Of a stretch of 64,000 bases of DNA, positions 12,243 through 57,585 are shown in pieces. Positions within the stretch are counted from its first letter, which is position 1, and each line of letters begins with the position of its first letter. The stretch is from Minisyncoccota bacterium (lineage in GTDB: Bacteria > Patescibacteriota > Minisyncoccia > Phycocordibacterales > UBA9973), in the NCBI GenBank assembly GCA_041661005.1, contig JBAZVG010000001.1, positions 6,019 through 70,018 on the forward strand, written 5' to 3'. A program made the translations under genes and the position numbers. The notes beneath the pieces are model-generated. The model was not told the origin of the DNA. It saw only the letters and a list, made by a program, of their open reading frames with translations, and made no database searches.

Positions 12243-12252
12243 ATGATATAAT

Positions 12253-12339
12253 AGACGTGGAATGACTTTTTATCAGGTCCTCGGTTCTCTGGGGCCCCGC
12301 GCCCCAGCCAGACCGTTCTAAAAAGTCATTCCACGTCTA
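12253..12339. repeat. Palindromic element: 19-bp perfect inverted repeats (tagacgtggaatgactttt / aaaagtcattccacgtcta) flanking a 48-nt GC-rich core; fills the ftsE-ftsX spacer
   Basis: Read directly. The core tcaggtcctcggttctctggggccccgcgccccagccagaccgttc is ~90% identical to the core at 51798..51843. Confidence 0.6.
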
Positions 12340-12349
12340 TTAAAATAAC

Positions 12350-26133: not shown

Positions 26134-26172
26134 AACCCTTCACCAAAATTTTGGTGAAGGGTTTTGTTTTTC
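26134..26172 (+). terminator. Rho-independent terminator
   Basis: aacccttcaccaaaa-ttttggtgaagggtt followed by ttgtttttc. Confidence 0.55.
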
Positions 26173-26420
26173 GTACATTATAAAAATTTTAGAGTCCGAA
26201 TATTTTTCTGCTGAAAAATTTCTCAAGACTCGCGCCGTCGCGCTCCGTAGCCTCTAAAATCTTTACAATGTACTCAAACTTGAATTTGACTTATCCACAG
26301 TTTTGTTTAAAAAAGTATTGTTTTACATTTTAATAAGGAACATAATTAAAGTGTTTTCGCAATAGAAATTTAAGGTCGTCTTTTATTGCAAACTATTTAG
26401 AAAATTAATTTATAAATACT

Positions 26421-33084: not shown

Positions 33085-34365
33085 ATGCAATTAGATTTAT
33101 CCCTCGGTCGTAGCCGTACGGGCGAGGCAAAAATTAAAAAAGTATTCTTTATTGGTATTGGCGGTATCGGTATTTCGGCTTTAGCCAAGATGGCTATTTC
33201 ACGTGGAATATATGTGTCCGGGGTAAATGACGAAGAAAGTCCGAAAACTCTTGACTCACTCCATGAAGTAGGTGCAGAGATTATTTTTCAAAAAGATTTG
33301 AAAAAATTACCGGAAGCTGATCTATATATTTACAGCGATGCTTGGATATATCGAGGGCCTGAAATATTACAAAGCGCAAAAAATACAGGTAAACCCGTTT
33401 TGTCTTATTTTGAAGCGCTTGGACAATTTGCAAAAGAATACAAAGTCATAGCTATCGCCGGCACTCATGGCAAGACGACGACTACCAGCATGGTCGCAGA
33501 AGTTATGGTGGAGGCTGGTCTTGACCCCACAGTAATAGTCGGAAGTTTTGTTAAAAAGTTTGATTCTAATTTCCGAAAAGGGAATGGTGAATATCTAGTG
33601 GTGGAAGCGGATGAATACAACAGGCATTTCTTAAACTTTAATCCATTCATCGGGGTTGTCACAAACATTGAAGCTGATCATTTGGATTGTTATAAAGATT
33701 TGGTAGACATAAAAGGAGCTTTTGATAAATTTCTTTCTCAATGTGAAAATAAGATTGTGGATTACGGTAAATATTTAGAAAAAGTTCCGAAGCTTTCTGT
33801 GCCCGGGTCGCATAATAGAATGAACGCTGCTGCGGCGTTGGCGGTTGCAGACATTTTAAAGATTCATGAGGATGTTGCCAAAAAAGCATTATCAGAATTT
33901 GGTGGCACTTGGCGTAGACTTGAGAAAAAAGGGGAGACAAAAGATGGTGTGATTGTTTACGATGACTATGCCCATCATCCGACAGAGATAAAAGCCAGTC
34001 TCCAGGCATTACGAGAGCTTTATCCTGAACATGGCGAAAGGCAGAAGAAAATAACAGTTGTGTTTCAACCTCATTTATATAGTCGAACCAAAGCTTTGTT
34101 CGATGATTTTGCTAAAAGTTTCGGGCAAGCAGACAAAATATTGCTTTTACCCATTTATTTTGCCCGAGAAGACAAAGATGAAAGTATCTCAAGCGAAAAA
34201 CTTTCTGAAGCTATCAAAAAGGAAGGGGGTGATGCGCGAGCTTTTGCTGACTTTAAATCAGCTGAAAAAGCTGTCTCTGCTTTGGGTTTGGGATCCGATG
34301 ATGTGTTTGTAACCATGGGGGCGGGGGAAGCTTATAAAGTGGCTGAAAAAGTATTCGGAATGTAG
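33085..34365 (+). CDS. murC: UDP-N-acetylmuramate--L-alanine ligase
   Basis: FFIGIGGIGISALA, IAIAGTHGKTTTTSM, GSHNRMNAAAALAVA. Confidence 0.85.
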   Translation: MQLDLSLGRSRTGEAKIKKVFFIGIGGIGISALAKMAISRGIYVSGVNDEESPKTLDSLHEVGAEIIFQKDLKKLPEADLYIYSDAWIYRGPEILQSAKNTGKPVLSYFEALGQFAKEYKVIAIAGTHGKTTTTSMVAEVMVEAGLDPTVIVGSFVKKFDSNFRKGNGEYLVVEADEYNRHFLNFNPFIGVVTNIEADHLDCYKDLVDIKGAFDKFLSQCENKIVDYGKYLEKVPKLSVPGSHNRMNAAAALAVADILKIHEDVAKKALSEFGGTWRRLEKKGETKDGVIVYDDYAHHPTEIKASLQALRELYPEHGERQKKITVVFQPHLYSRTKALFDDFAKSFGQADKILLLPIYFAREDKDESISSEKLSEAIKKEGGDARAFADFKSAEKAVSALGLGSDDVFVTMGAGEAYKVAEKVFGM

Positions 34366-34713
34366 CAAAATTTAGGAAAATTCTTTCTTGATATAGTTTT
34401 ATCTAGACACGACATAATTTTCTGCTGAAAATTTGCTATGCTCGGCTCGACAGCCTGCGCAATGTCTATCTAAAACTACACCTGCAACAAATTTTCCTAA
34501 ATTTTACTATTTTTAACCTTATTTGTCAATATGCCTATGTCAAAATATCCTTATTTTATAAGGTTTTTTCTGTTTGACATACTGTGAAAGTATTGTATAA
34601 CTATTGACATTTAAACCGGATTATGCTATCATTAAAGTGTATCCTTATTATATAGGCCAGATGACTTATCTGCCTTATTAAATAAGGGTTTTTTAGTTTT
34701 TAGCCCAAATTAT

Positions 34714-42099: not shown

Positions 42100-42915
42100 A
42101 TGCAAATTCAAGAAATAAAAAAAAACGCTATTCACTCCCGCAAACCAATTTTGTTATTTTGGCTATCTATCATTGTTGCAGTCGGACTTTTGAGTCCTAT
42201 AACAGAAATAAATGCGCAGGCGTCGAGGAAGGCACCGTGTTTTATCCCCAATGGGGACGGGACAGGCGGTAGAGTTTTAACGATGAATCGACAGGAATGC
42301 GAATCGTTTTTTGGAACATTTGATGCCACTTCGGCTCCAGCACGGGAGATAAGGGGTGAAAATCCTAGCGATATTGACTGCATTCTCTATGACGCGGATG
42401 GGGTATCAAATCCTAGAATTGTAAGGATGACTCGAATTGTATGTGAATCCTATCATGGAACACCTAGTGCAGCGAATCTTGGCACGGGTCAACCTGCCAC
42501 TGGTACTAATGTTAATTCGGCTCCAGTTGTCGCTCCCACTCAGTCTGTTACTGTATTTTCTTTTGCAGAGATAGACACGGATAAACCAGATGTTGAGGGA
42601 GGCTTGGTGCCCTGTGGTCATCCGGATGCTCAAGGTAATATAACTAACCCCTGTAGTTTCAAGGATGCTCTAACTCTCATAAACACCATAATAAAGTTTA
42701 TTCTTTTTGATTTAGCGATTCCGATTGCCGCCGTGATGTTCGCTTATGCGGGTTTTAAACTGGTAACTTCCGGAGGTAGCTCTGAGGCTAGGGGGCAGGC
42801 GAAAAATATTTTCTCCAACGCAGTTTTTGGGCTGGTGATTGCCGCTGGCGCTTGGCTCATTATCAGGACGATATTATCAGTTTTGGGTTATCAAGGGGCT
42901 TGGATTGGATTTTAA
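42100..42915 (+). CDS. Secreted protein, paralog 1 of a five-member tandem family with a C-terminal two-TM pilin-like module
   Basis: Signal peptide, Cys-containing N-domain, C-terminal IPIAAVMFAYAGFKLVTSGGSSEARGQAKNIFSNAVFGLVIAAGAW. Nucleotides 42130..42500 are near-identical to 42975..43345. Confidence 0.45.
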   Translation: MQIQEIKKNAIHSRKPILLFWLSIIVAVGLLSPITEINAQASRKAPCFIPNGDGTGGRVLTMNRQECESFFGTFDATSAPAREIRGENPSDIDCILYDADGVSNPRIVRMTRIVCESYHGTPSAANLGTGQPATGTNVNSAPVVAPTQSVTVFSFAEIDTDKPDVEGGLVPCGHPDAQGNITNPCSFKDALTLINTIIKFILFDLAIPIAAVMFAYAGFKLVTSGGSSEARGQAKNIFSNAVFGLVIAAGAWLIIRTILSVLGYQGAWIGF

Positions 42916-42951
42916 TGTGGTGTATAATACCGTTGTGAATTTTTTAATTTT

Positions 42952-43686
42952 ATGAGGAGAAATTTTAACAAACCAATTTTGTTATTTTGGCTATCTATCA
43001 TTGTTGCAGTCGGACTTTTGAGTCCTATAACAGAAATAAATGCGCAGGCGTCGAGGAAGGCACCGTGTTTTATCCCCAATGGGGACGGGACAGGCGGTAG
43101 AGTTTTAACGATGAATCGACAGGAATGCGAATCGTTTTTTGGAACATTTGATGCCACTTCGGCTCCAGCACGGGAGATAAGGGGTGAAAATCCTAGCGAT
43201 ATTGACTGCATTCTCTATGACGCGGATGGGGTATCAAATCCCAGAATTGTAAGGATGACTCGAATTGTATGTGAATCCTATCATGGAACACCTAGTGCAG
43301 CGAATCTTGGCACGGGTCAACCTGCCACCAGTACTAATATTAATTCGTCTCCAGTTGTCGCTCCCACTCAGTCTGTTACTTATGATTCATCTCCATGTAT
43401 TGGCAAGATCTGCAACCCTCTGGGTACTAAAGGGGTAGCCAGTATCCCAGCTTTCATTCAAAAACTTTTAGAAGGCGTCTTGCAGATTGGCATACCCATC
43501 GTGGCGCTCGCTATCATTTATTGTGGTTTCCTGTTTGTGGCGGCTCGGGGTAATTCGGAAAAATTAGGCAAAGCCAAAGATGCCCTGCTCTATACCCTGA
43601 TCGGCGCGGCGATACTTTTGGGGTCGTGGGCTATTGCGCAGATGATATCCGCTACTGTCACTGGACTTGGGGCTGGAGTAGTATAA
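42952..43686 (+). CDS. Paralog 2 (recent tandem duplicate of paralog 1 over the first ~125 codons)
   Basis: Identical N-domain. C-terminal GIPIVALAIIYCGFLFVAARGNSEKLGKAKDALLYTLIGAAILLGSWAI. Confidence 0.45.
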   Translation: MRRNFNKPILLFWLSIIVAVGLLSPITEINAQASRKAPCFIPNGDGTGGRVLTMNRQECESFFGTFDATSAPAREIRGENPSDIDCILYDADGVSNPRIVRMTRIVCESYHGTPSAANLGTGQPATSTNINSSPVVAPTQSVTYDSSPCIGKICNPLGTKGVASIPAFIQKLLEGVLQIGIPIVALAIIYCGFLFVAARGNSEKLGKAKDALLYTLIGAAILLGSWAIAQMISATVTGLGAGVV

Positions 43687-43709
43687 TTTTTATTATAGAT
43701 TAAAATAAT

Positions 43710-44159
43710 ATGAAAAAAATCTTACCATATCTTCTGATGCTGACTATCCTTGTGGGACTTCTTAGTCCAGTAACGGTGACGCGTGGAGCTGATGTTTTTG
43801 ATCCTACTAATAGATCTAATACAGTTAATGTGTCAGAATCGTCAACTTCGTCCACTTTTGTGACTTGTAGGTTGGATAATAAACCAAAACTTCAGCATCT
43901 TTTAAATTACGCCACTTGCATCATAAATACGTCGGTGATTCCTTTGATTTTTGCTTTGGCGATTGTGATGTTTGTCTGGGGAGTGGTGCAGTTTGTGATA
44001 AATAGCGACGACGAAGCAAAAAAGACTAAAGGCAAGATGTTTATGATTTGGGGCATCGTCGCTTTGACGGTGATGGTTTCGGTTTGGGGCTTGGTGGCGA
44101 TACTGGGAAATACTTTCGGCGTTAATACCGGCATTATTCCACAGGTCAAGTCCCCATAG
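43710..44159 (+). CDS. Paralog 3 of pilin-like family
   Basis: IPLIFALAIVMFVWGVVQFVINSDDEAKKTKGKMFMIWGIVALTVMVSVWGLVAILGNTFGVN. Confidence 0.45.
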   Translation: MKKILPYLLMLTILVGLLSPVTVTRGADVFDPTNRSNTVNVSESSTSSTFVTCRLDNKPKLQHLLNYATCIINTSVIPLIFALAIVMFVWGVVQFVINSDDEAKKTKGKMFMIWGIVALTVMVSVWGLVAILGNTFGVNTGIIPQVKSP

Positions 44160-44162
44160 TTG

Positions 44163-44228
44163 CCCCGTAGTGAATTTTGGCGAGGCGCAAAGCGCAAGTT
44201 ATAAACATCGCCAAAATCTACTACGGGG
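44163..44228. repeat. REP-like long hairpin repeat, copy 1
   Basis: ccccgtagtgaattttggcga ... tcgccaaaatctactacgggg: a 21-bp stem with one G-U and one A-C mismatch that are conserved in all copies. Confidence 0.6.
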
Positions 44229-44256
44229 TTGCTTTGTTTTATTTATGTTTGTGGTA

Positions 44257-44334
44257 CCCCGTAGTGAATTTTGGCAACATGTTTTAGATTGGTTAGTTTT
44301 AAACAAACTAACCTTGCCAAAATCTACTACGGGG
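44257..44334. repeat. REP-like long hairpin repeat, copy 2 (different loop)
   Basis: ccccgtagtgaattttggcaa ... ttgccaaaatctactacgggg. Confidence 0.6.
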
Positions 44335-44386
44335 TGGTATTATTAAGGAATATTATTAATATTATTATTTAGAGTCGTAAAAAATT

Positions 44387-44794
44387 ATGAAAAAGAAATT
44401 AGTTGTTTTGTCAGGTTTTGTTTTAGGTTTGGCTCCGGTTGTAGCGTTGGCGCAAATTAATCTTGGTGGTGGTCCTACCGGAAGTTGCGTTCTTGGTAAT
44501 GGAGGTACAATTTTTGGTATATTTTGCCGAGTTGGGCAGATTCTTAATTCCATTGTGCCCATATTGATTGCCCTAGGAATTGTTTACTTTGTTTGGGGAG
44601 TCATTTCTTATGTAATCGGTGGCGACGAAGAAGCAAAGAAGAAAGGAAGAGACAAAATAATCTATGGCATTATTGGTTTAGCTGTTATTGTTGCGGTCTG
44701 GGGGCTTGTGGGAATTTTAACTAGAACCTTTGGTGTTAATAATACATTTCAAGGAAATATTCCAACTATTCCTGTTCCCAATCAAGTTAATTAG
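44387..44794 (+). CDS. Paralog 4 of pilin-like family
   Basis: VPILIALGIVYFVWGVISYVIGGDEEAKKKGRDKIIYGIIGLAVIVAVWGLVGILTRTFGVNN. Confidence 0.45.
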   Translation: MKKKLVVLSGFVLGLAPVVALAQINLGGGPTGSCVLGNGGTIFGIFCRVGQILNSIVPILIALGIVYFVWGVISYVIGGDEEAKKKGRDKIIYGIIGLAVIVAVWGLVGILTRTFGVNNTFQGNIPTIPVPNQVN

Positions 44795-44810
44795 TATCAT
44801 TTCTAATGAT

Positions 44811-45140
44811 ATGGATATATTCTCCACCAATGTGGCTTATGCGGATGGGCGTTTTGACAAGTTTTTGACGAATGTCAACACAGAAATCATCAATCCACTC
44901 ATACTGTTCCTTTTTGCTCTCGCGATGGTGTTTTTCCTCTACGGCGTGTTTGAGTTTATTGCAAATGGCGCCAATGATGAGAAAAAGACAACTGGGAAAA
45001 GTCACATGATTTGGGGTGTTGTCGGGCTTACCATTATGATGGGGGTTTGGGCGATTCTTAATATTATTTTGAGTACGTTTGATATTCCAAAAAGTCAGAT
45101 AAACCCAGAACAGGGAACTGTGACTTTGCCACCAAAATAG
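44811..45140 (+). CDS. Paralog 5 of pilin-like family (no obvious signal peptide)
   Basis: NPLILFLFALAMVFFLYGVFEFIANGANDEKKTTGKSHMIWGVVGLTIMMGVWAIL. Start chosen at Met 44811 downstream of the paralog 4 stop. Confidence 0.4.
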   Translation: MDIFSTNVAYADGRFDKFLTNVNTEIINPLILFLFALAMVFFLYGVFEFIANGANDEKKTTGKSHMIWGVVGLTIMMGVWAILNIILSTFDIPKSQINPEQGTVTLPPK

Positions 45141-47474: not shown

Positions 47475-47714
47475 GTGGGCGAGGGGAGACTTGGTCAGGC
47501 ATAATTTTCTGCTGAAAATTTGCACGACCCTGCCTCTTCCGACCTAAAGTCGGAGTCCGGCTTTCTCGTCCTAAAATACTTCGTATTTTACCTCGTGGGC
47601 GAGGGGAGACTTGGTCAGGCATAATTTTCTGCTGAAAATTTGCACGACCCTGCCTCTTCCGACCTAAAGTCGGAGTCCGGCTTTCTCGTCCTAAAATACT
47701 TCGTATTTTACCTC
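47475..47714. repeat. Two perfect 120-bp tandem direct repeats, each beginning with the last 19 nt of tRNA-Leu(TAG) (gtgggcgaggggagacttg on this strand); the intact tRNA follows at 47716
   Basis: Read directly. Period is exactly 120 (47475, 47595, then the tRNA copy at 47715). Each unit also carries the aattttctgctgaaaattt motif and a ccgacctaaagtcggag hairpin. Confidence 0.75.
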
Positions 47715-48046: not shown

Positions 48047-48562
48047 TTAACTTTTTATGAAAAGATTATTTCTATCCTTCATCTTATTATGCTGTTTTGT
48101 ATTTCTTCCTCGATGTGTTGTTTGTAGACTGTGACAATTTGGACACAGAATTCTTAAGTTTTCTAATCTGTTGTCATGCCTATCTCCATTGATGTGATCT
48201 AACTCCAGGGGTACTCTACCATCAATCGACATTTTAGCCCAACTACACTCTTCACATTTAGGTTCCTTTAGTTTAACTAAAAAAAGTCTTTTTTTCAACT
48301 TAAAGCTTTGATAGGTACTATTTTTCACTAAAATATCTTTTAAAGCTATGACTGGTATAAATGGCCTTTTTAATCCTTTATTCCAGAGCATTCCTGTAAA
48401 ATGTTTTGTAGATATTTTATATTCTCTTATATATTTTTTTACTTGATCATAATTTCCACCTGCGGGCACTAATCCTAAAATTTTTATTACGTTTCTGTAA
48501 CTTTTAGAATCTTTAACTGCATTTTTTAATTGCTCTTCCGACCAACTTCTTTTTTTAGGCAT
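48047..48562 (-). CDS. HNH homing-type endonuclease (free-standing)
   Basis: ELDHINGDRHDNRLENLRILCPNCH (HNH motif with Zn-binding Cys pairs CEEC...CPNC). It lies between tRNA-Leu(TAA) and tRNA-Cys. Confidence 0.75.
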   Translation of the reverse strand: MPKKRSWSEEQLKNAVKDSKSYRNVIKILGLVPAGGNYDQVKKYIREYKISTKHFTGMLWNKGLKRPFIPVIALKDILVKNSTYQSFKLKKRLFLVKLKEPKCEECSWAKMSIDGRVPLELDHINGDRHDNRLENLRILCPNCHSLQTTHRGRNTKQHNKMKDRNNLFIKS

Positions 48563-51158: not shown

Positions 51159-51183
51159 GTATAGATAATATATACCCGGTAGT

Positions 51184-51260
51184 GAGCTTTAGCAAGGCAC
51201 AAAGAAAGCATGCTCGCAGAGCGAGCGATTGCTAAAGTCTACTAACCGGGTATACTATTT
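51184..51260. repeat. REP-like long hairpin repeat, copy 3 (ends 3 nt before the cysteine desulfurase start codon)
   Basis: cccggtagtgagctttagcaaggcacaaag ... gctaaagtctactaaccggg. Confidence 0.6.
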
Positions 51261-51262
51261 CA

Positions 51263-52552
51263 ATGCCCAAATCAAATAAAGGCTCGACAGAAAAAACAAG
51301 AAAAATATATTTAGATTATGCGTCCAGTGTGGAATCCAATCCAAGTTCTATACACATGGAAGGGGTGCAAGCCAGAGTCAGGCTTCAAAATGCGCGTAGA
51401 GAAGTTGCAGGTGTGCTTGGCGCAAAATCGGAAGAAATAATCTTTACCAGTGGAGGCACTGAGAGCAACAATCTTGCAATTCAAGGTATGGTTTTGTCTT
51501 TGCAGGGAAAAATGTTGCCCCATATTATAACAACAAACATCGAACACCCGTCTGTTCTTGAAACCTTTAAACTTCTTGAAAAAAGAAAACTTGCGCAAAT
51601 TTCCATAGTGCCCGTAGAAGCGAACGGCATTGTGGATCCAAAAAAAATAAAAAAAGAAATTAAAAAAAATACGGTTCTTGTGTCTGTGATGTATGCCAAT
51701 AATGAAATTGGCACTATCCAGCCCATAAGAGAAATTGCAAAAGAGATCAGACATTTTAGAAAGCAAAAGGAAAAGAAGAAAGGTTTTCTCAGGTCCTCGG
51801 TTCCCTGGGTCCCTCCCCCAGCCAGACCATTCCAAAACCTTTCTTCTTTTCCTTTTTTTCATACCGACGCAGTGCAAGCAGGAAACTATCTAGATTTGAA
51901 TGTAGAGAGATTGGGAGTGGATTTGCTCTCGCTTTCTGGTTCGAAAATTTTTGGTGGGGGTAAAGTTGGAGTGCTTTATAAAAAAAAATCTGTGCCTCTT
52001 GCAAATATATTTGGCGGGGGAAATCAAGAAATGGGATTACGTCCGGGCACGGAAAATTTGCCGGAGATTTTAAAATTTTCCAAGGCGCTTCAATTTACAC
52101 AGAAAGTAAAAGAAAAAGAGGCAAAGAGATTAACTAAACTTCGGGATTATTTTATCGCTTCGCTTCATCAAATTTTTTCCTCCTGCGTCCTTCTCGGATT
52201 ACCGAGTGGGACCCTCGGAAATAAAAAATTCGATGAAGCTTCACTCTTTGTAAATGGTGATTTAAAAGATAGATTGCCGAATAATATAAATATTACTATT
52301 CCAAATATTCCAAGCGATCTTTTGGTCATTGAGCTTTCAGCAAAAGGAATAATGTGTTCATCAAAAAGCGCTTGTGAATCCGGCGATGGCAAAGCGTCAT
52401 ATGTTATTAAAGCAATAAATAAAAATATTTCAGAAGAGGACGGCTCTTTGCGGTTTTCATTAGGAAGAGATACCACAAAAGCAGATATTGATTATACTGT
52501 TAAAGCTTTATCACAAATTTTGACTAAATTAGAAAAGTGGTACACCCGGTAG
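51263..52552 (+). CDS. Cysteine desulfurase (class V aminotransferase, NifS/IscS-like) carrying an in-frame ~30-aa insertion derived from a palindromic repeat
   Basis: SGGTESNNLAIQG, HTDAVQAG, SLSGSKIFGG (the PLP-Lys region), and catalytic-loop Cys in SSKSACESG. The segment RKQKEKKKGFLRSSVPWVPPPARPFQNLSSFPF precedes the conserved FHTDAVQ motif, where no insert is expected. Confidence 0.75.
   Translation: MPKSNKGSTEKTRKIYLDYASSVESNPSSIHMEGVQARVRLQNARREVAGVLGAKSEEIIFTSGGTESNNLAIQGMVLSLQGKMLPHIITTNIEHPSVLETFKLLEKRKLAQISIVPVEANGIVDPKKIKKEIKKNTVLVSVMYANNEIGTIQPIREIAKEIRHFRKQKEKKKGFLRSSVPWVPPPARPFQNLSSFPFFHTDAVQAGNYLDLNVERLGVDLLSLSGSKIFGGGKVGVLYKKKSVPLANIFGGGNQEMGLRPGTENLPEILKFSKALQFTQKVKEKEAKRLTKLRDYFIASLHQIFSSCVLLGLPSGTLGNKKFDEASLFVNGDLKDRLPNNINITIPNIPSDLLVIELSAKGIMCSSKSACESGDGKASYVIKAINKNISEEDGSLRFSLGRDTTKADIDYTVKALSQILTKLEKWYTR
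51765..51855. repeat. Palindromic element inside the cysteine desulfurase CDS: 22-bp inverted repeats (aaaaggaaaagaagaaaggtttt / aaaacctttcttcttttcctttt) flanking a 45-nt core homologous to the 12271..12318 core
   Basis: Read directly. Core tcaggtcctcggttccctgggtccctccccagccagaccattc. The flanking IRs are unrelated to those of the 12253 copy. Confidence 0.6.
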
Positions 52553-52616
52553 TGAATTTTGGTAAGGCACAAAGTGCAGCTCGCAAAACGAGCATTGCCA
52601 AAATCTACTAACCGGG
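52545..52616. repeat. REP-like long hairpin repeat, copy 4 (its first arm provides the desulfurase TAG stop codon)
   Basis: cccggtagtgaattttggtaaggcacaaagtgcagctcgcaaaacgagcattgccaaaatctactaaccggg. Confidence 0.6.
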
Positions 52617-52628
52617 TATAATTGAGGG

Positions 52629-53462
52629 ATGGATATCAAGGATTTAAACAAACCACAACTACTGCTTTTGGCTGTGTTGCTTTCTTTTATCACTTCTATT
52701 GCCACAGGCATAACGACGGTGACTTTGATGCAACAAGCACCGGCGTCTTTCACCGTGCCCGTCAATCGTGTCGTCAGACAAACAATAGAAAAAATTCAAC
52801 AAGTGGAAGGCAAAACCACAGTGCAAACTGTCATTGTGAAAGAAGAAGATCTAGTGGTGGATGCTATCGCTAAAAATAAATCAGCCACCTTTGCTGTTAG
52901 TAAAGAATCCCCCGACTTAAATGGGCAGAATGTTGAAGTCTCCATTGGGCGAGGATTCGCGGTTTCCACGGATGGCATAGTTGCAGTTGATAGCGGTTTT
53001 GCAAAAGAGGCTGGGGTTTATTTTTTGAAAAATGATAGCGGGAAGTTCAAAGCTGATTTCTTGCTGGTGGACAAATCCGGTTTTTCACTTCTGAAGATAG
53101 GAGCTCCGCTTGATGAAAAAAGTAAGCCAGTTTTTACCGTGCCAGTTTTTGGTGATTTAAACAAAATGAAAATAGGTCAAAAGATTTTAGTTTTAGGCGA
53201 TACTATATCTTCTTTTATTTTTGAAGGGGATAAGAATATAAAAATTATTAATGTTACAAAATCAAATGCTGGCGCCATCGTGCTGGATCTCGATGGAAAT
53301 GTTTTAGGCATAGCTTTATCTCTCGAAGCTACGTCTTTTGCACCTATTGATGCCATAAAAGATGTCCTGAATGCAAAATTCTCCGAAAATATCAAAACGA
53401 CCATGTCAGCAGCTCCAATACTTGCGCCTTCTACTTCTCCTTCTGTGTCTTCTACGCAGTAA
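52629..53462 (+). CDS. Membrane-anchored trypsin-fold (HtrA-like) protein apparently lacking the catalytic His and Ser
   Basis: GRGFAVSTDGIVAVDSGFA has no His where HtrA has TNNHVV. DKSGFSLLKI retains the Asp. KSNAGAIVLDLDGNVLGIALS has Ala where HtrA has the Ser of GNSGG. Confidence 0.4.
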   Translation: MDIKDLNKPQLLLLAVLLSFITSIATGITTVTLMQQAPASFTVPVNRVVRQTIEKIQQVEGKTTVQTVIVKEEDLVVDAIAKNKSATFAVSKESPDLNGQNVEVSIGRGFAVSTDGIVAVDSGFAKEAGVYFLKNDSGKFKADFLLVDKSGFSLLKIGAPLDEKSKPVFTVPVFGDLNKMKIGQKILVLGDTISSFIFEGDKNIKIINVTKSNAGAIVLDLDGNVLGIALSLEATSFAPIDAIKDVLNAKFSENIKTTMSAAPILAPSTSPSVSSTQ

Positions 53463-56660: not shown

Positions 56661-57473
56661 ATGGTTAGACGTTGGACAAAAAAAGAAGAAGGCAAGTATC
56701 GATCAGAACTTTTTAAGATTTATGTTAAACAGAATAAAAGTTTGGGTGAGGTTTCAAAAATTTTAGATATATCGGAGCAAGCAGTTTTTCGAAGATTGGG
56801 GCGTTTGGGGATTAAAACACAACCGCATTTAAAAAAGAATTACTTAAAAAAGCGGATTGATGTACGAATTCCAGATAAATACTCTGAAGATCTGGCGGAA
56901 TTTTTTGGTATTATGCTTGGTGATGGGCATATAAGTCATTTTCAAGTTGTGGTTAGCTTGGGTAATAAAGAAGAAAAATATGCAGAATATGTCAAATCGC
57001 TTATCAAGAAAATATTTAAGACGAATGTAAAAATTTCCCTTCGAAGTAAGGGATACCGAGATGTTTATCTTGGTTCAGTGGCTATAACATCATGGCTCCT
57101 TAAGGAAGGGCTTGTTCACAATAAGGTCAAATCACAGGTCGATGTGCCAATGTGGATATTTAGTAAAAATAATTTTATAAAGCGTTTTTTAAGGGGATTT
57201 TTTGACACTGACGGATCGGTATACAAATTAAAATATGGTATTCAAGTGTCCTTTTGCAATCGGTCTTTACCGATACTTCTATCTTTACAAAAGATGCTTA
57301 AAAAGTTAGAATACAATCCGTCACGTTTAAGTTCGTATAATATGTATCTTACTAAAAGGGAAGATGTTAAAAGATTTTTTCAGGAGATCAAACCATCTAA
57401 TCCTAAACATGTAAGTAGATATTTAAACATTTCAAACAACATGCGTCGGTCGGATAGTGGCTATTCCAGGTGA
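56661..57473 (+). CDS. LAGLIDADG-family homing endonuclease (two motifs, single-chain) with N-terminal HTH; free-standing
   Basis: Motif 1 LAEFFGIMLGDGHIS, motif 2 FLRGFFDTDGSVY, N-terminal SLGEVSKILDISEQAVFRRLGRLGI. The last 31 nt of the ORF overlap the tRNA-Tyr 5' end. Confidence 0.75.
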   Translation: MVRRWTKKEEGKYRSELFKIYVKQNKSLGEVSKILDISEQAVFRRLGRLGIKTQPHLKKNYLKKRIDVRIPDKYSEDLAEFFGIMLGDGHISHFQVVVSLGNKEEKYAEYVKSLIKKIFKTNVKISLRSKGYRDVYLGSVAITSWLLKEGLVHNKVKSQVDVPMWIFSKNNFIKRFLRGFFDTDGSVYKLKYGIQVSFCNRSLPILLSLQKMLKKLEYNPSRLSSYNMYLTKREDVKRFFQEIKPSNPKHVSRYLNISNNMRRSDSGYSR

Positions 57474-57524
57474 CTGTAAATCACCCGCCTTCGGGCATCG
57501 TTGGTTCGAGTCCAACCCGGCGCA
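57443..57524 (+). tRNA. tRNA-Tyr (anticodon GTA), type II
   Basis: Acceptor gcgtcgg/ccggcgc (one U-G), D-arm gga/tcc, anticodon stem ggtga/tcacc, loop ctGTAaa, long variable arm cgccttcgggcatc, T-arm gttgg-ttcgagt-ccaac, discriminator A. Confidence 0.8.
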
Positions 57525-57585
57525 CAATAAAAATCCACCTTTTTACTTCATGAAGTTTTCATCTATACTGTAATAGTATAGATAT

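Follow-up and report, generated by a model that had tools for sequence, protein, structure and literature searches.

What are the long imperfect hairpins scattered through a stretch of the genome of a Minisyncoccota bacterium, and how did they come to sit so close to its genes? The stretch, hereafter the window, comprises 64,000 nucleotides of contig JBAZVG010000001.1 (assembly GCA_041661005.1, positions 6,019 to 70,018 of the forward strand). A preliminary description of its sequence recognized four copies of one repeat, likened them to repetitive extragenic palindromic (REP) elements, and listed among their possible roles a MITE (miniature inverted-repeat transposable element) that depends on an enzyme supplied in trans. 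Our analysis supports the last of these. Membership of the four copies in a family associated with GIY-YIG nucleases, and distributed among bacteria of the Candidate Phyla Radiation (CPR; Patescibacteria), is well supported. Taken as a whole, the most probable interpretation is that they are MITE-like members of this family that lack an open reading frame (ORF), with the nuclease, acting in trans, as their putative mover.

The four copies are real and are the only ones in the window. A two-arm pattern matched four times, compared with 0.00 matches expected from shuffled sequence, and a covariance model run over the whole 64 kb with filters off recovered the same four at 55-70 bits, with everything else at or below 17 bits. 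The copies, and the gene flanked by two of them, are as follows.

44163-44228, plus strand: copy 1, 66 bp, ORF-less, outer stem CCCC/GGGG.
44257-44334, plus strand: copy 2, 78 bp, outer stem CCCC/GGGG.
51175-51250, plus strand: copy 3, 76 bp, outer stem CCCG/CGGG, with an additional A at 51245.
52545-52616, plus strand: copy 4, 72 bp, outer stem CCCG/CGGG, with an additional A at 52611.
51263-52552, plus strand: cysteine desulfurase gene (Aminotran_5), a native gene and not cargo.

The positions first given for copies 1, 2 and 4 hold, whereas copy 3 had been placed 9-10 nt too high, at 51184-51260. Copies 3 and 4 had also been described as ending 3 nt before an ATG; the distance is 12 nt in both cases (51250 to 51263 and 52616 to 52629). 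The arms read GTAGTGARYTTTRG and CYAAARTCTACTA, in agreement with the consensus originally proposed except at one position, written there as t/a, which is in fact g/a. All four copies retain the G.U pair and A.C mismatch already noticed where GTAGTGA lies opposite TCTACTAC, and the reported motif AGGCRCAAAG is present in copies 1, 3 and 4. In copy 1 this core encloses a tip that begins GGCGCAAAGCGC. Each copy is predicted to fold into a long hairpin of -36 to -41 kcal/mol, with fold z-scores between -5.5 and -8.6 over the two strands and between -5.5 and -7.1 for the plus strand. The only ORF across copies 1 and 2 (44170-44346, 58 aa) is a by-product of the repeat.

Short direct repeats lie immediately outside the stems. 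Copy 1 begins 4 nt past the stop codon of a type IV secretion system (T4SS) pilin gene (43710-44159) and is flanked by TTG on both sides (44160-44162 and 44229-44231). Copy 2 has a 5-bp direct repeat, TGGTA (44252-44256 and 44335-44339), and sits 52 nt upstream of a pilin paralogue (44387-44794); as had been described, the pair therefore lies between two T4SS-pilin paralogues (PF18895). Copy 3 is located in a 24-nt divergent spacer between a DUF4446 gene (start 51158, minus strand) and the desulfurase (ATG at 51263), with a TATA target-site duplication (51171-51174 and 51251-51254). The corresponding sequences around copy 4 are TACA (52541-52544) and TATA (52617-52620).

The desulfurase locus provides an opportunity to compare occupied with empty sites. 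In three relatives, L203 (whose DUF4446 protein is 91% identical), L204/205 and L206/207 (L numbers denote loci outside the window), the gene order is RbfA-IF2-DUF4446, diverging from desulfurase-27x-aa protein-ClpB, exactly as in the window, and neither copy 3 nor copy 4 is present, with no replacement. At the site of copy 3 these relatives have 24 nt between the divergent start codons, containing GATAATATATACTA or CAATATATACTA, whereas the window reads GATAATATATA, copy 3, TATACTA. At the site of copy 4 they have a TGGTATAATTGA-like sequence, in which the desulfurase frame ends TGG TAT AAT TGA, or with GAT TAG or AGT TAA in place of the last two codons; the window reads TGG TAC A, copy 4, TATAATTGA. 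The desulfurase C-terminus is correspondingly KWY(N/D/S)-stop in the relatives and KWYTR-stop in the window. Copy 4 has thus replaced the last codon and the stop codon of the gene, and the new stop, from the element's GTAG, is the TAG at 52550-52552 that had been correctly assigned to the left arm of copy 4. The 5' duplicate TATA later became TACA through a synonymous Tyr change, TAT to TAC. With empty sites for both copies in three relatives, copies 3 and 4 are therefore two independent insertions, each of which duplicated TATA, around a resident desulfurase. The suggestion that the two copies bracket this gene as one unit must accordingly be abandoned. Exact-protein look-ups of the window proteins returned matches from the same strain only.

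We considered how widely the element is distributed. One genome per species (GTDB representatives, 596 Gb) was scanned with the pattern GTAGTGANNTTTNG-N(18-48)-CNAAANTCTACTA, for which our own arithmetic gives a chance expectation of about 2 hits in that volume. The scan revealed at least 120 loci, almost all in Patescibacteria/CPR, so that the family is not private to this genome, a concern that the preliminary description had raised. The 80 record titles shown are all from CPR except for a Dehalococcoidia metagenome-assembled genome (MAG), a Bdellovibrionales MAG and 8 unclassified MAGs; the lineages include Saccharibacteria, Paceibacteria and Nomura-, Nealson-, Yanofsky-, Zambryski-, Gottesman-, Portnoy- and Giovannonibacteria. 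A scan of the IMG/VR viral contigs gave 0 matches to the hairpin. The genes found repeatedly beside the hairpins belong to the T4SS, housekeeping and GIY-YIG groups. Those of the T4SS recur most often (L076, L103, L063, L091, L060, L038, L100, L089 and the window at 42100-45140), with a VirD4-like ATPase in 8 and T4SS pilins in 5 of the 120 loci, where about 1 would be expected for a single-copy gene.

An alignment of 126 copies defines the anatomy of the family. Short forms span 55-90 bp, with arms of about 21-25 bp. The outer stem of 4 bp varies in sequence (CCCC, CCCG, CCCA, CCAG, CAGG, TCCG and others) and stays paired; the core, GTAGTGA opposite TCTACTAC, is invariant and forms five Watson-Crick pairs followed by G.T and A.C; and the inner stem covaries freely (ATTTTGG/CCAAAAT, GCTTTCG/CGAAAGT, AATTTCG/CGAAATT). 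Pairing along the whole stem reaches 94.8%. Shuffled sequences give 81.1%, and sliding the partner lowers the figure to 33-43%; for covariation the scores are 0.352 versus 0.104, with 10 pairs changed on both sides. The tip has a median length of 31 nt and a median z of -2.6, and carries one or two mini-hairpins (57 and 66 copies, respectively) whose loops are predominantly triloops (108 of 189); loops resembling C(UUCG)G also occur. All copies recovered by the model but not by the pattern retain the tandem mismatch, which is invariant across the more than 200 copies seen, in keeping with the earlier proposal of a constrained repeat family. The model scores of the two strands differ solely through the two mismatched positions. 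Minimal copies consisting of the stem only occur at L086 755-794, L002 1420-1452 and L115 about 1043-1086.

The direct repeats seen in the window are a general property of these hairpins. A direct repeat of 3-6 bp lies just outside the outer stem in 110 of the 126 copies, and is exactly 4 bp long in 66; when the flanks were permuted, 107 of the 126 copies had none. The duplicated tetranucleotides are nearly all YNNR, mostly TNNA, and occur in both orientations relative to the element. TTGA/TCAA accounts for 26 duplications, and the others include TATA, TAAA, TCCA/TGGA, CTTG/CAAG, TTAG and TATG. Reconstructed empty sites are often a -35 box (TTGACA). Surviving insertions sit exactly at gene boundaries, that is, at a -35 or -10 box, a start codon or the last codons of a gene, and the duplication keeps the downstream -35 box, -10 box or ATG intact. 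Intergenic spacers in these genomes are 3-24 nt long. On the upstream side, stop codons in the arms (TAG-TGA on one strand, TAG-TAG on the opposite one) end the upstream frame; in other genomes, the upstream ORF uses the element's TAG in 6 of 57 co-oriented cases. On the downstream side, the right arms of copies 2 to 4 give TTGCCA or TTGCTA, 16-18 nt upstream of the flanking TATTAT, TATACT and TATAAT, with promoter-like match scores of 10, 9 and 11 of 12. Copies 2 to 4 thus possibly also donate a -35-like hexamer to the downstream gene, a suggestion to which we attach low weight; family-wide, hybrid outward promoters are weakly enriched, at 9 and 11 of 123 copies versus 5.5 and 7.8 in controls.

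A further empty site can be reconstructed at L008, where an element lies within a duplicated 5' half of tRNA-Ile: when the element is excised together with one TTAG, the result matches the intact tRNA-Ile that lies 60 nt away. We also asked whether hairpins interrupt live tRNA genes; excision in silico followed by ARAGORN gave only neighbouring intact tRNAs and interrupted fragments. Hairpins in or against tRNA genes were seen at L008 3900-4200, L068 5569-5647, L100 1-120, L111 3487-3569, L022 3176-3262 and L098 1363-1441. They occupy the duplicated 5' half of tRNA-Ile, a 3' tRNA fragment (T-loop), or positions immediately next to the first or the last bases of an intact tRNA, which stays complete thanks to the duplication.

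One insertion hot spot, TTGGAC(N)GGG, coincides with the end of a dockerin-like ORF (AYYWTG-stop, the stop coming from the element's GTAG), just upstream of a free-standing GIY-YIG gene, about 100-200 nt before its ORF. It is occupied at L164, L140, L161, L159, L194, L143, L154, L162 and L167 and at L114 561-630 and L118 2790-2869, by hairpins in both orientations and by tandem and 5'-truncated copies. The 4 nt that follow the duplication at the hot spot equal the element's outer stem, which is not so family-wide. The corresponding general hypothesis, that the outer stem is a copy of the adjacent target and the duplication one of 8 bp, was discarded; four-of-four matches are not enriched in general (3 versus 1.0 expected).

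The link between the hairpins and a nuclease gene emerged from a long copy at L096, which has arms GTAGTGAAAATTCGAC and GTCGAATTTCTACTAC and a TATG duplication and encloses a 91-aa ORF. The product is a GIY-YIG domain (PF01541; 63.5 bits versus a cut-off of 22.6, E 2.3e-17), and 8 of the 120 hairpin loci contain a relative of this protein. In L114, L118 and L100 a GIY-YIG ORF begins 23-123 nt after the hairpin. A metagenome search with the L096 protein alone gave at least 600 candidates, at least 539 of which are relatives, and 80 loci were analysed. At about 50 of the 80, an ORF of 82-98 aa has GTAGTGA some 19-27 nt away on its upstream side and TCTACTAC some 10-20 nt away on its downstream side, or the same arms in reverse orientation; at about 15 more, a complete short hairpin lies no more than about 130 nt from the ORF, nearly always upstream. 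The long elements measure 304-328 bp (46 measured; 45 after a spurious 404-bp pairing in L127 was dropped). They have a paired 4-bp outer stem and the same GA/AG asymmetry as the short forms, and 34 of them have an exact 4-bp duplication, TATG/CATA in 23 and TGGA/TCCA in 6. Relative to the GA/AG asymmetry, the nuclease ORF runs forward in 29 elements and in reverse in 17, and it is packed within 7-20 nt of both arms. Long and short forms thus have their ends and their duplications in common, and this extends to arm type and target preference: AAATTC arms go with TATG, and ATTTTG arms with TTGA or TGGA.

Of 16 long elements that duplicate TATG, 15 have a 3' copy whose ATG begins a host ORF of 87 aa or more; such elements therefore occupy start codons precisely, without destroying them. 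Within one subfamily a frame opened by the 5' ATG continues across the arm and joins the nuclease ORF, and because of this continuation gene callers report proteins of 97-101 aa.

A strict census of 1.14 Mb from about 200 CPR genomes or contigs, which counted only elements having both arms, pairing in the outer stem and a duplication of exactly 4 bp, yielded 71 elements shorter than 120 bp, 4 of 120-280 bp and 38 of 280-400 bp; it was used in place of a half-site search for solitary arms, which proved too noisy. Apart from the pairing of copy 3 with copy 4, the census contained no element longer than 400 bp, and hence no partner of a size to encode a DDE transposase, and no ORF of the size of a REP-associated tyrosine transposase (RAYT; about 150-300 aa) between the arms of its elements.

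The closest proteins of solved structure to the enclosed nuclease are the UPF0213 protein BH0048 (1zg2, 5e-8), EF2693 (1ywl) and SLX1 (7wme, 7cq2, 4xlg). Residues Y6, Y17, G19, R27, H31 and E63 are invariant in 8 diverse members, and we take the invariant Y, Y, R, H and E to be equivalent to the catalytic residues of I-TevI, the Y pair being that of the GIY and YIG motifs and the E the one that binds metal. Named database members are almost all from CPR (Patescibacteria, Portnoy-, Nealson- and Parcubacteria), with one from an Omnitrophica MAG. A GIY-YIG ORF of the same family was also seen inside a 16S rRNA gene (L056 1662-1925), flanked on either side by rRNA sequence. The case agrees with published insertions in CPR rRNA genes, whose GIY-YIG ORFs are found neither in introns nor at specific sites (PMC11270868), and GIY-YIG genes are among those exchanged by Patescibacteria (PMC12455944). 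In the literature that we searched there was no account of inverted repeats, duplications or hairpin derivatives; a description elsewhere is possible.

These findings suggest how a hairpin without an ORF might move. We propose that a nuclease of the SLX1/UPF0213 type, acting in trans, would recognize the ends of the element when they are paired with each other, either as a cruciform or as a single-stranded hairpin, and would cut both the element and its target. The distortion introduced by G.T and A.C, present only when the arms pair together, may be part of what the nuclease recognizes. Two target nicks 4 bp apart, followed by host fill-in and ligation, would leave the 4-bp duplication. Recognition of paired ends fits the kinship with SLX1, an outer stem that varies yet remains paired, and a mismatch that exists only in the fold.

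Several points weigh against this interpretation. No GIY-YIG gene was found in the 64-kb window. GIY-YIG enzymes act as hydrolytic nucleases that are not known to transfer or ligate strands, and none is known as an established prokaryotic transposase. The short forms are not long forms with a simple deletion; the two have the ends alone in common. No long element that we retrieved has the exact ATTTTGG arms of the window copies; GIY-YIG genes do directly adjoin hairpins of the ATTTTGG type in L114, L118, L100 and L164. In addition, the long elements came from a protein-based search, and the sample is biased to one clade and includes near-duplicates. Finally, the strong covariation would fit a host-selected RNA structure as well.

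The alternative that survives best is that the hairpins are classical MITEs of an unseen insertion sequence (IS) with a DDE-type transposase, and that the GIY-YIG ORF is a selfish homing-endonuclease gene that colonized the loop, the ORF-less hairpins being its 'empty alleles'. Terminal inverted repeats with a target duplication of fixed length are the hallmark of DDE transposition, and GIY-YIG enzymes are known as homing endonucleases. An ORF that occurs in either orientation, and also just outside complete hairpins, likewise fits a gene that moves independently. We nevertheless regard this alternative as unlikely. The census returned no element above 400 bp with these ends, and the terminal 4 bp vary freely yet remain paired, unlike termini contacted by a transposase. 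Moreover, long and short forms of one arm type have the same target preference, and the ORF is packed against both arms.

More improbable still is a structured RNA on which host selection acts, for instance as a transcript stabiliser, an insulator, a processing site or a regulator, with its spread as a secondary matter. The strong covariation, the strongly negative fold z-scores and the structured tips, some with C(UUCG)G-like loops, would all suit an RNA; the downstream gene is co-oriented with the hairpin in 64 of 101 cases, and at the orthologous positions L114 and L118 the copies differ by compensatory changes. However, close relatives lack copies 3 and 4 with nothing in their place, other copies lie in tRNA gene fragments and at ORF ends, and hairpins occur in both orientations and in all four intergenic types. 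The triloop tips fit DNA palindromes at least equally well. No Rfam 15 family matches the hairpin sites at the gathering score, and at E values up to 10 there are just chance matches to microRNA-like hairpins. We considered intrinsic terminators as well, and rejected them: no T-run follows the stems of copies 1 to 4, which continue into TTGC, TGGTA, TATAC and TATAA, and no terminator-like site spans their long stems, the sole reported site being a 6-bp sub-hairpin within copy 3 on the minus strand. A role as transcript stabiliser or terminator, one of those first put forward, is therefore not sustained, given the missing T-run, the presence/absence polymorphism and the occurrence of both orientations.

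The likeness to REP elements that motivated the preliminary description has substance in GTAG at the 5' foot of an imperfect palindrome, in conserved stem irregularities and in mostly extragenic copies. But a REP/REPIN family mobilized by a RAYT (a Y1 HUH transposase) is very hard to reconcile with the other observations: there is a 4-bp target duplication, which REPs and the IS200/IS605 relatives do not make; the ends enclose a GIY-YIG gene, and no ORF of about 150-300 aa lies between the arms of strict elements in the 1.14 Mb surveyed, where Pfam covered ten proteins; the recurrent neighbours are T4SS, housekeeping and GIY-YIG genes; and the density is low, at 4 copies per 64 kb. The last alternative, that copies 3 and 4 form a 1441-bp composite transposon that imported the desulfurase, draws on the TATA flank and matching outer stems shared by the left end of copy 3 and the right end of copy 4, and can be dismissed, since synteny refutes it (the desulfurase lies between DUF4446 and the 27x-aa protein without hairpins in three relatives), copy 3 has its own perfect TATA duplication, the TACA/TATA of copy 4 differs by one synonymous change, and independent insertions into a favoured TATA make the outer TATA flanks a coincidence.

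Two other candidates were examined and set aside. A palindrome-associated element derived from IS200/IS605 (PATE) lies 3' of a fixed tetra- or pentanucleotide that is not duplicated, and has distinct subterminal hairpins on the left and right; the variable YNNR targets, duplicated on both sides, and the single hairpin formed by the two ends are inappropriate for it. The ends of the hairpins, CCNNGTAG and CTACNNGG, are not the R''/R' core sites (RYYYAAC / GTTRRRY) of an integron attC, which has an IntI integrase nearby and makes no target duplication; the hairpins do have a duplication, and a partial screen of the window ORFs, by eye or with Pfam, revealed no integrase.

Returning to mobilization by a GIY-YIG nuclease, comparison with known systems helps to define what is familiar and what is not. 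Like Correia/NEMIS of Neisseria, ERIC/IRU, RUP and Nezha, the CPR hairpins are ORF-less, fall in the 50-150 bp range and have terminal inverted repeats and a short target duplication; also like these MITEs, they occupy gene boundaries, have a foldable transcript and are able to donate promoter or stop signals. Those MITE families, however, derive from insertion sequences of DDE type (IS630/Tc1-like, which target TA, and others), and none extends beyond a genus or family, whereas the CPR hairpins span class- to phylum-level lineages, duplicate a 4-bp YNNR and keep the tandem mismatch, and their only ORF-bearing relatives encode a GIY-YIG nuclease. With the REP/REPIN-RAYT and IS200/IS605 plus PATE systems they have in common imperfect palindromes, conserved stem irregularities, GTAG at the foot and the pairing of non-autonomous hairpins with a small single-domain enzyme gene flanked by hairpins, a logic that brings REPIN-RAYT to mind; recognition of a folded single strand is plausible. 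Those systems use a Y1 HUH transposase and make no target duplication, in contrast to the 4-bp duplication and GIY-YIG gene seen here, and REPs are shorter (20-40 nt) and far more numerous, usually exceeding 100 per genome.

On the side of the enzyme, the GIY-YIG homing endonucleases (I-TevI, the T4 Seg proteins) have the same catalytic domain and similarly selfish behaviour. Their targets are long and specific, and recombinational repair spreads them, with neither inverted repeats nor target duplications involved, whereas the CPR partner proteins are a bare catalytic domain of about 88 aa enclosed by 20-bp inverted repeats. The closest solved relatives, SLX1 and bacterial UPF0213 (YhbQ/YazA), are structure-specific nucleases. 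SLX1 cuts branched and stem-loop DNA, a substrate type that suits a hairpin or cruciform. SLX1 and UPF0213 are, however, single-copy housekeeping or repair genes without associated repeats. The eukaryotic Penelope-like retroelements offer a precedent for mobile DNA whose target is cut by a GIY-YIG endonuclease; these depend on a reverse transcriptase, however, whereas the CPR element is about 310 bp long and has none. In kind, then, the hairpins are MITE-like, and what sets them apart from Correia/ERIC elements and REPIN-RAYT alike is the enzyme with which they are associated, the 4-bp YNNR duplication, the invariant tandem mismatch and the phylum-wide spread. More tentatively, we entertain the possibility that the long elements represent a categorically new class of prokaryotic transposon, driven by GIY-YIG chemistry, with a bare SLX1-like nuclease of about 88 aa as its sole protein.

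The hairpin family has implications for how CPR genomes are viewed. These genomes are regarded as streamlined and poor in mobile elements, and a shared hairpin shows a common, still active mobilome. The element rewrites gene ends, the desulfurase with its altered C-terminus and stop codon being a case in point, and is found within promoters, on start codons and in or beside tRNA genes. If a GIY-YIG nuclease does move it, a very small structure-recognizing nuclease would be a new class of enzyme for prokaryotic transposition, and the element of about 310 bp would be among the smallest autonomous mobile elements, with hairpin MITEs hitch-hiking on it throughout the CPR. In practical terms, insertion polymorphisms would serve as strain markers, and the repeats spawn false small ORFs and may fragment short-read assemblies. 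An example of the latter is L201, a short-read Logan contig carrying DUF4446, which ends 5 bp beyond copy 3 (copy at 6-84, region 1-99).

The window contains other small repeats. A second, unrelated element is found at 12249-12342, 51765-51856 and about 52168-52230, and at L203 1700-1800. It has a conserved core of about 46 nt (TCAGGTCCTCGGTTCYCTGGG..CCCCAGCCAGACCRTTC) within perfect inverted repeats of 23-24 nt that differ in sequence from copy to copy. The desulfurase contains it in frame, with the addition of QKEKKKGFLRSSVPWVPPPARPF (69 nt, or 23 + 46), which is absent from the relatives; an older in-frame copy is present in L203 as well. Native residues QNLSSFPFF are encoded in the right arm, which makes the left arm an inverted copy of the neighbouring target, and an inverted rather than direct target duplication is very unusual. 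A possible third family with the same logic is represented at 34363-34509, 26168-26278 and 47475-47714, where long inverted repeats, specific to each copy, enclose a core CATAATTTTCTGCTGAAAATTTGC (at 34413, 47500 and 47620, with a variant at 26199). In the case of 47475-47714 the core is part of a perfect tandem duplication of 120 nt directly adjoining tRNA-Leu(tag).

Upstream of the pilin genes, 300 nt are 100% identical between 42141-42440 and 42969-43268, in adjacent paralogous genes for secreted proteins (42100-42915 and 42952-43686), which indicates recent duplication or gene conversion. Elsewhere, a free-standing HNH endonuclease gene (48047-48562, minus strand) is located among four tRNA genes, and the ORF of a LAGLIDADG-domain protein (56661-57473, plus strand) runs into tRNA-Tyr (57443-57525). 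The HNH and LAGLIDADG genes represent further selfish nucleases in this small genome.

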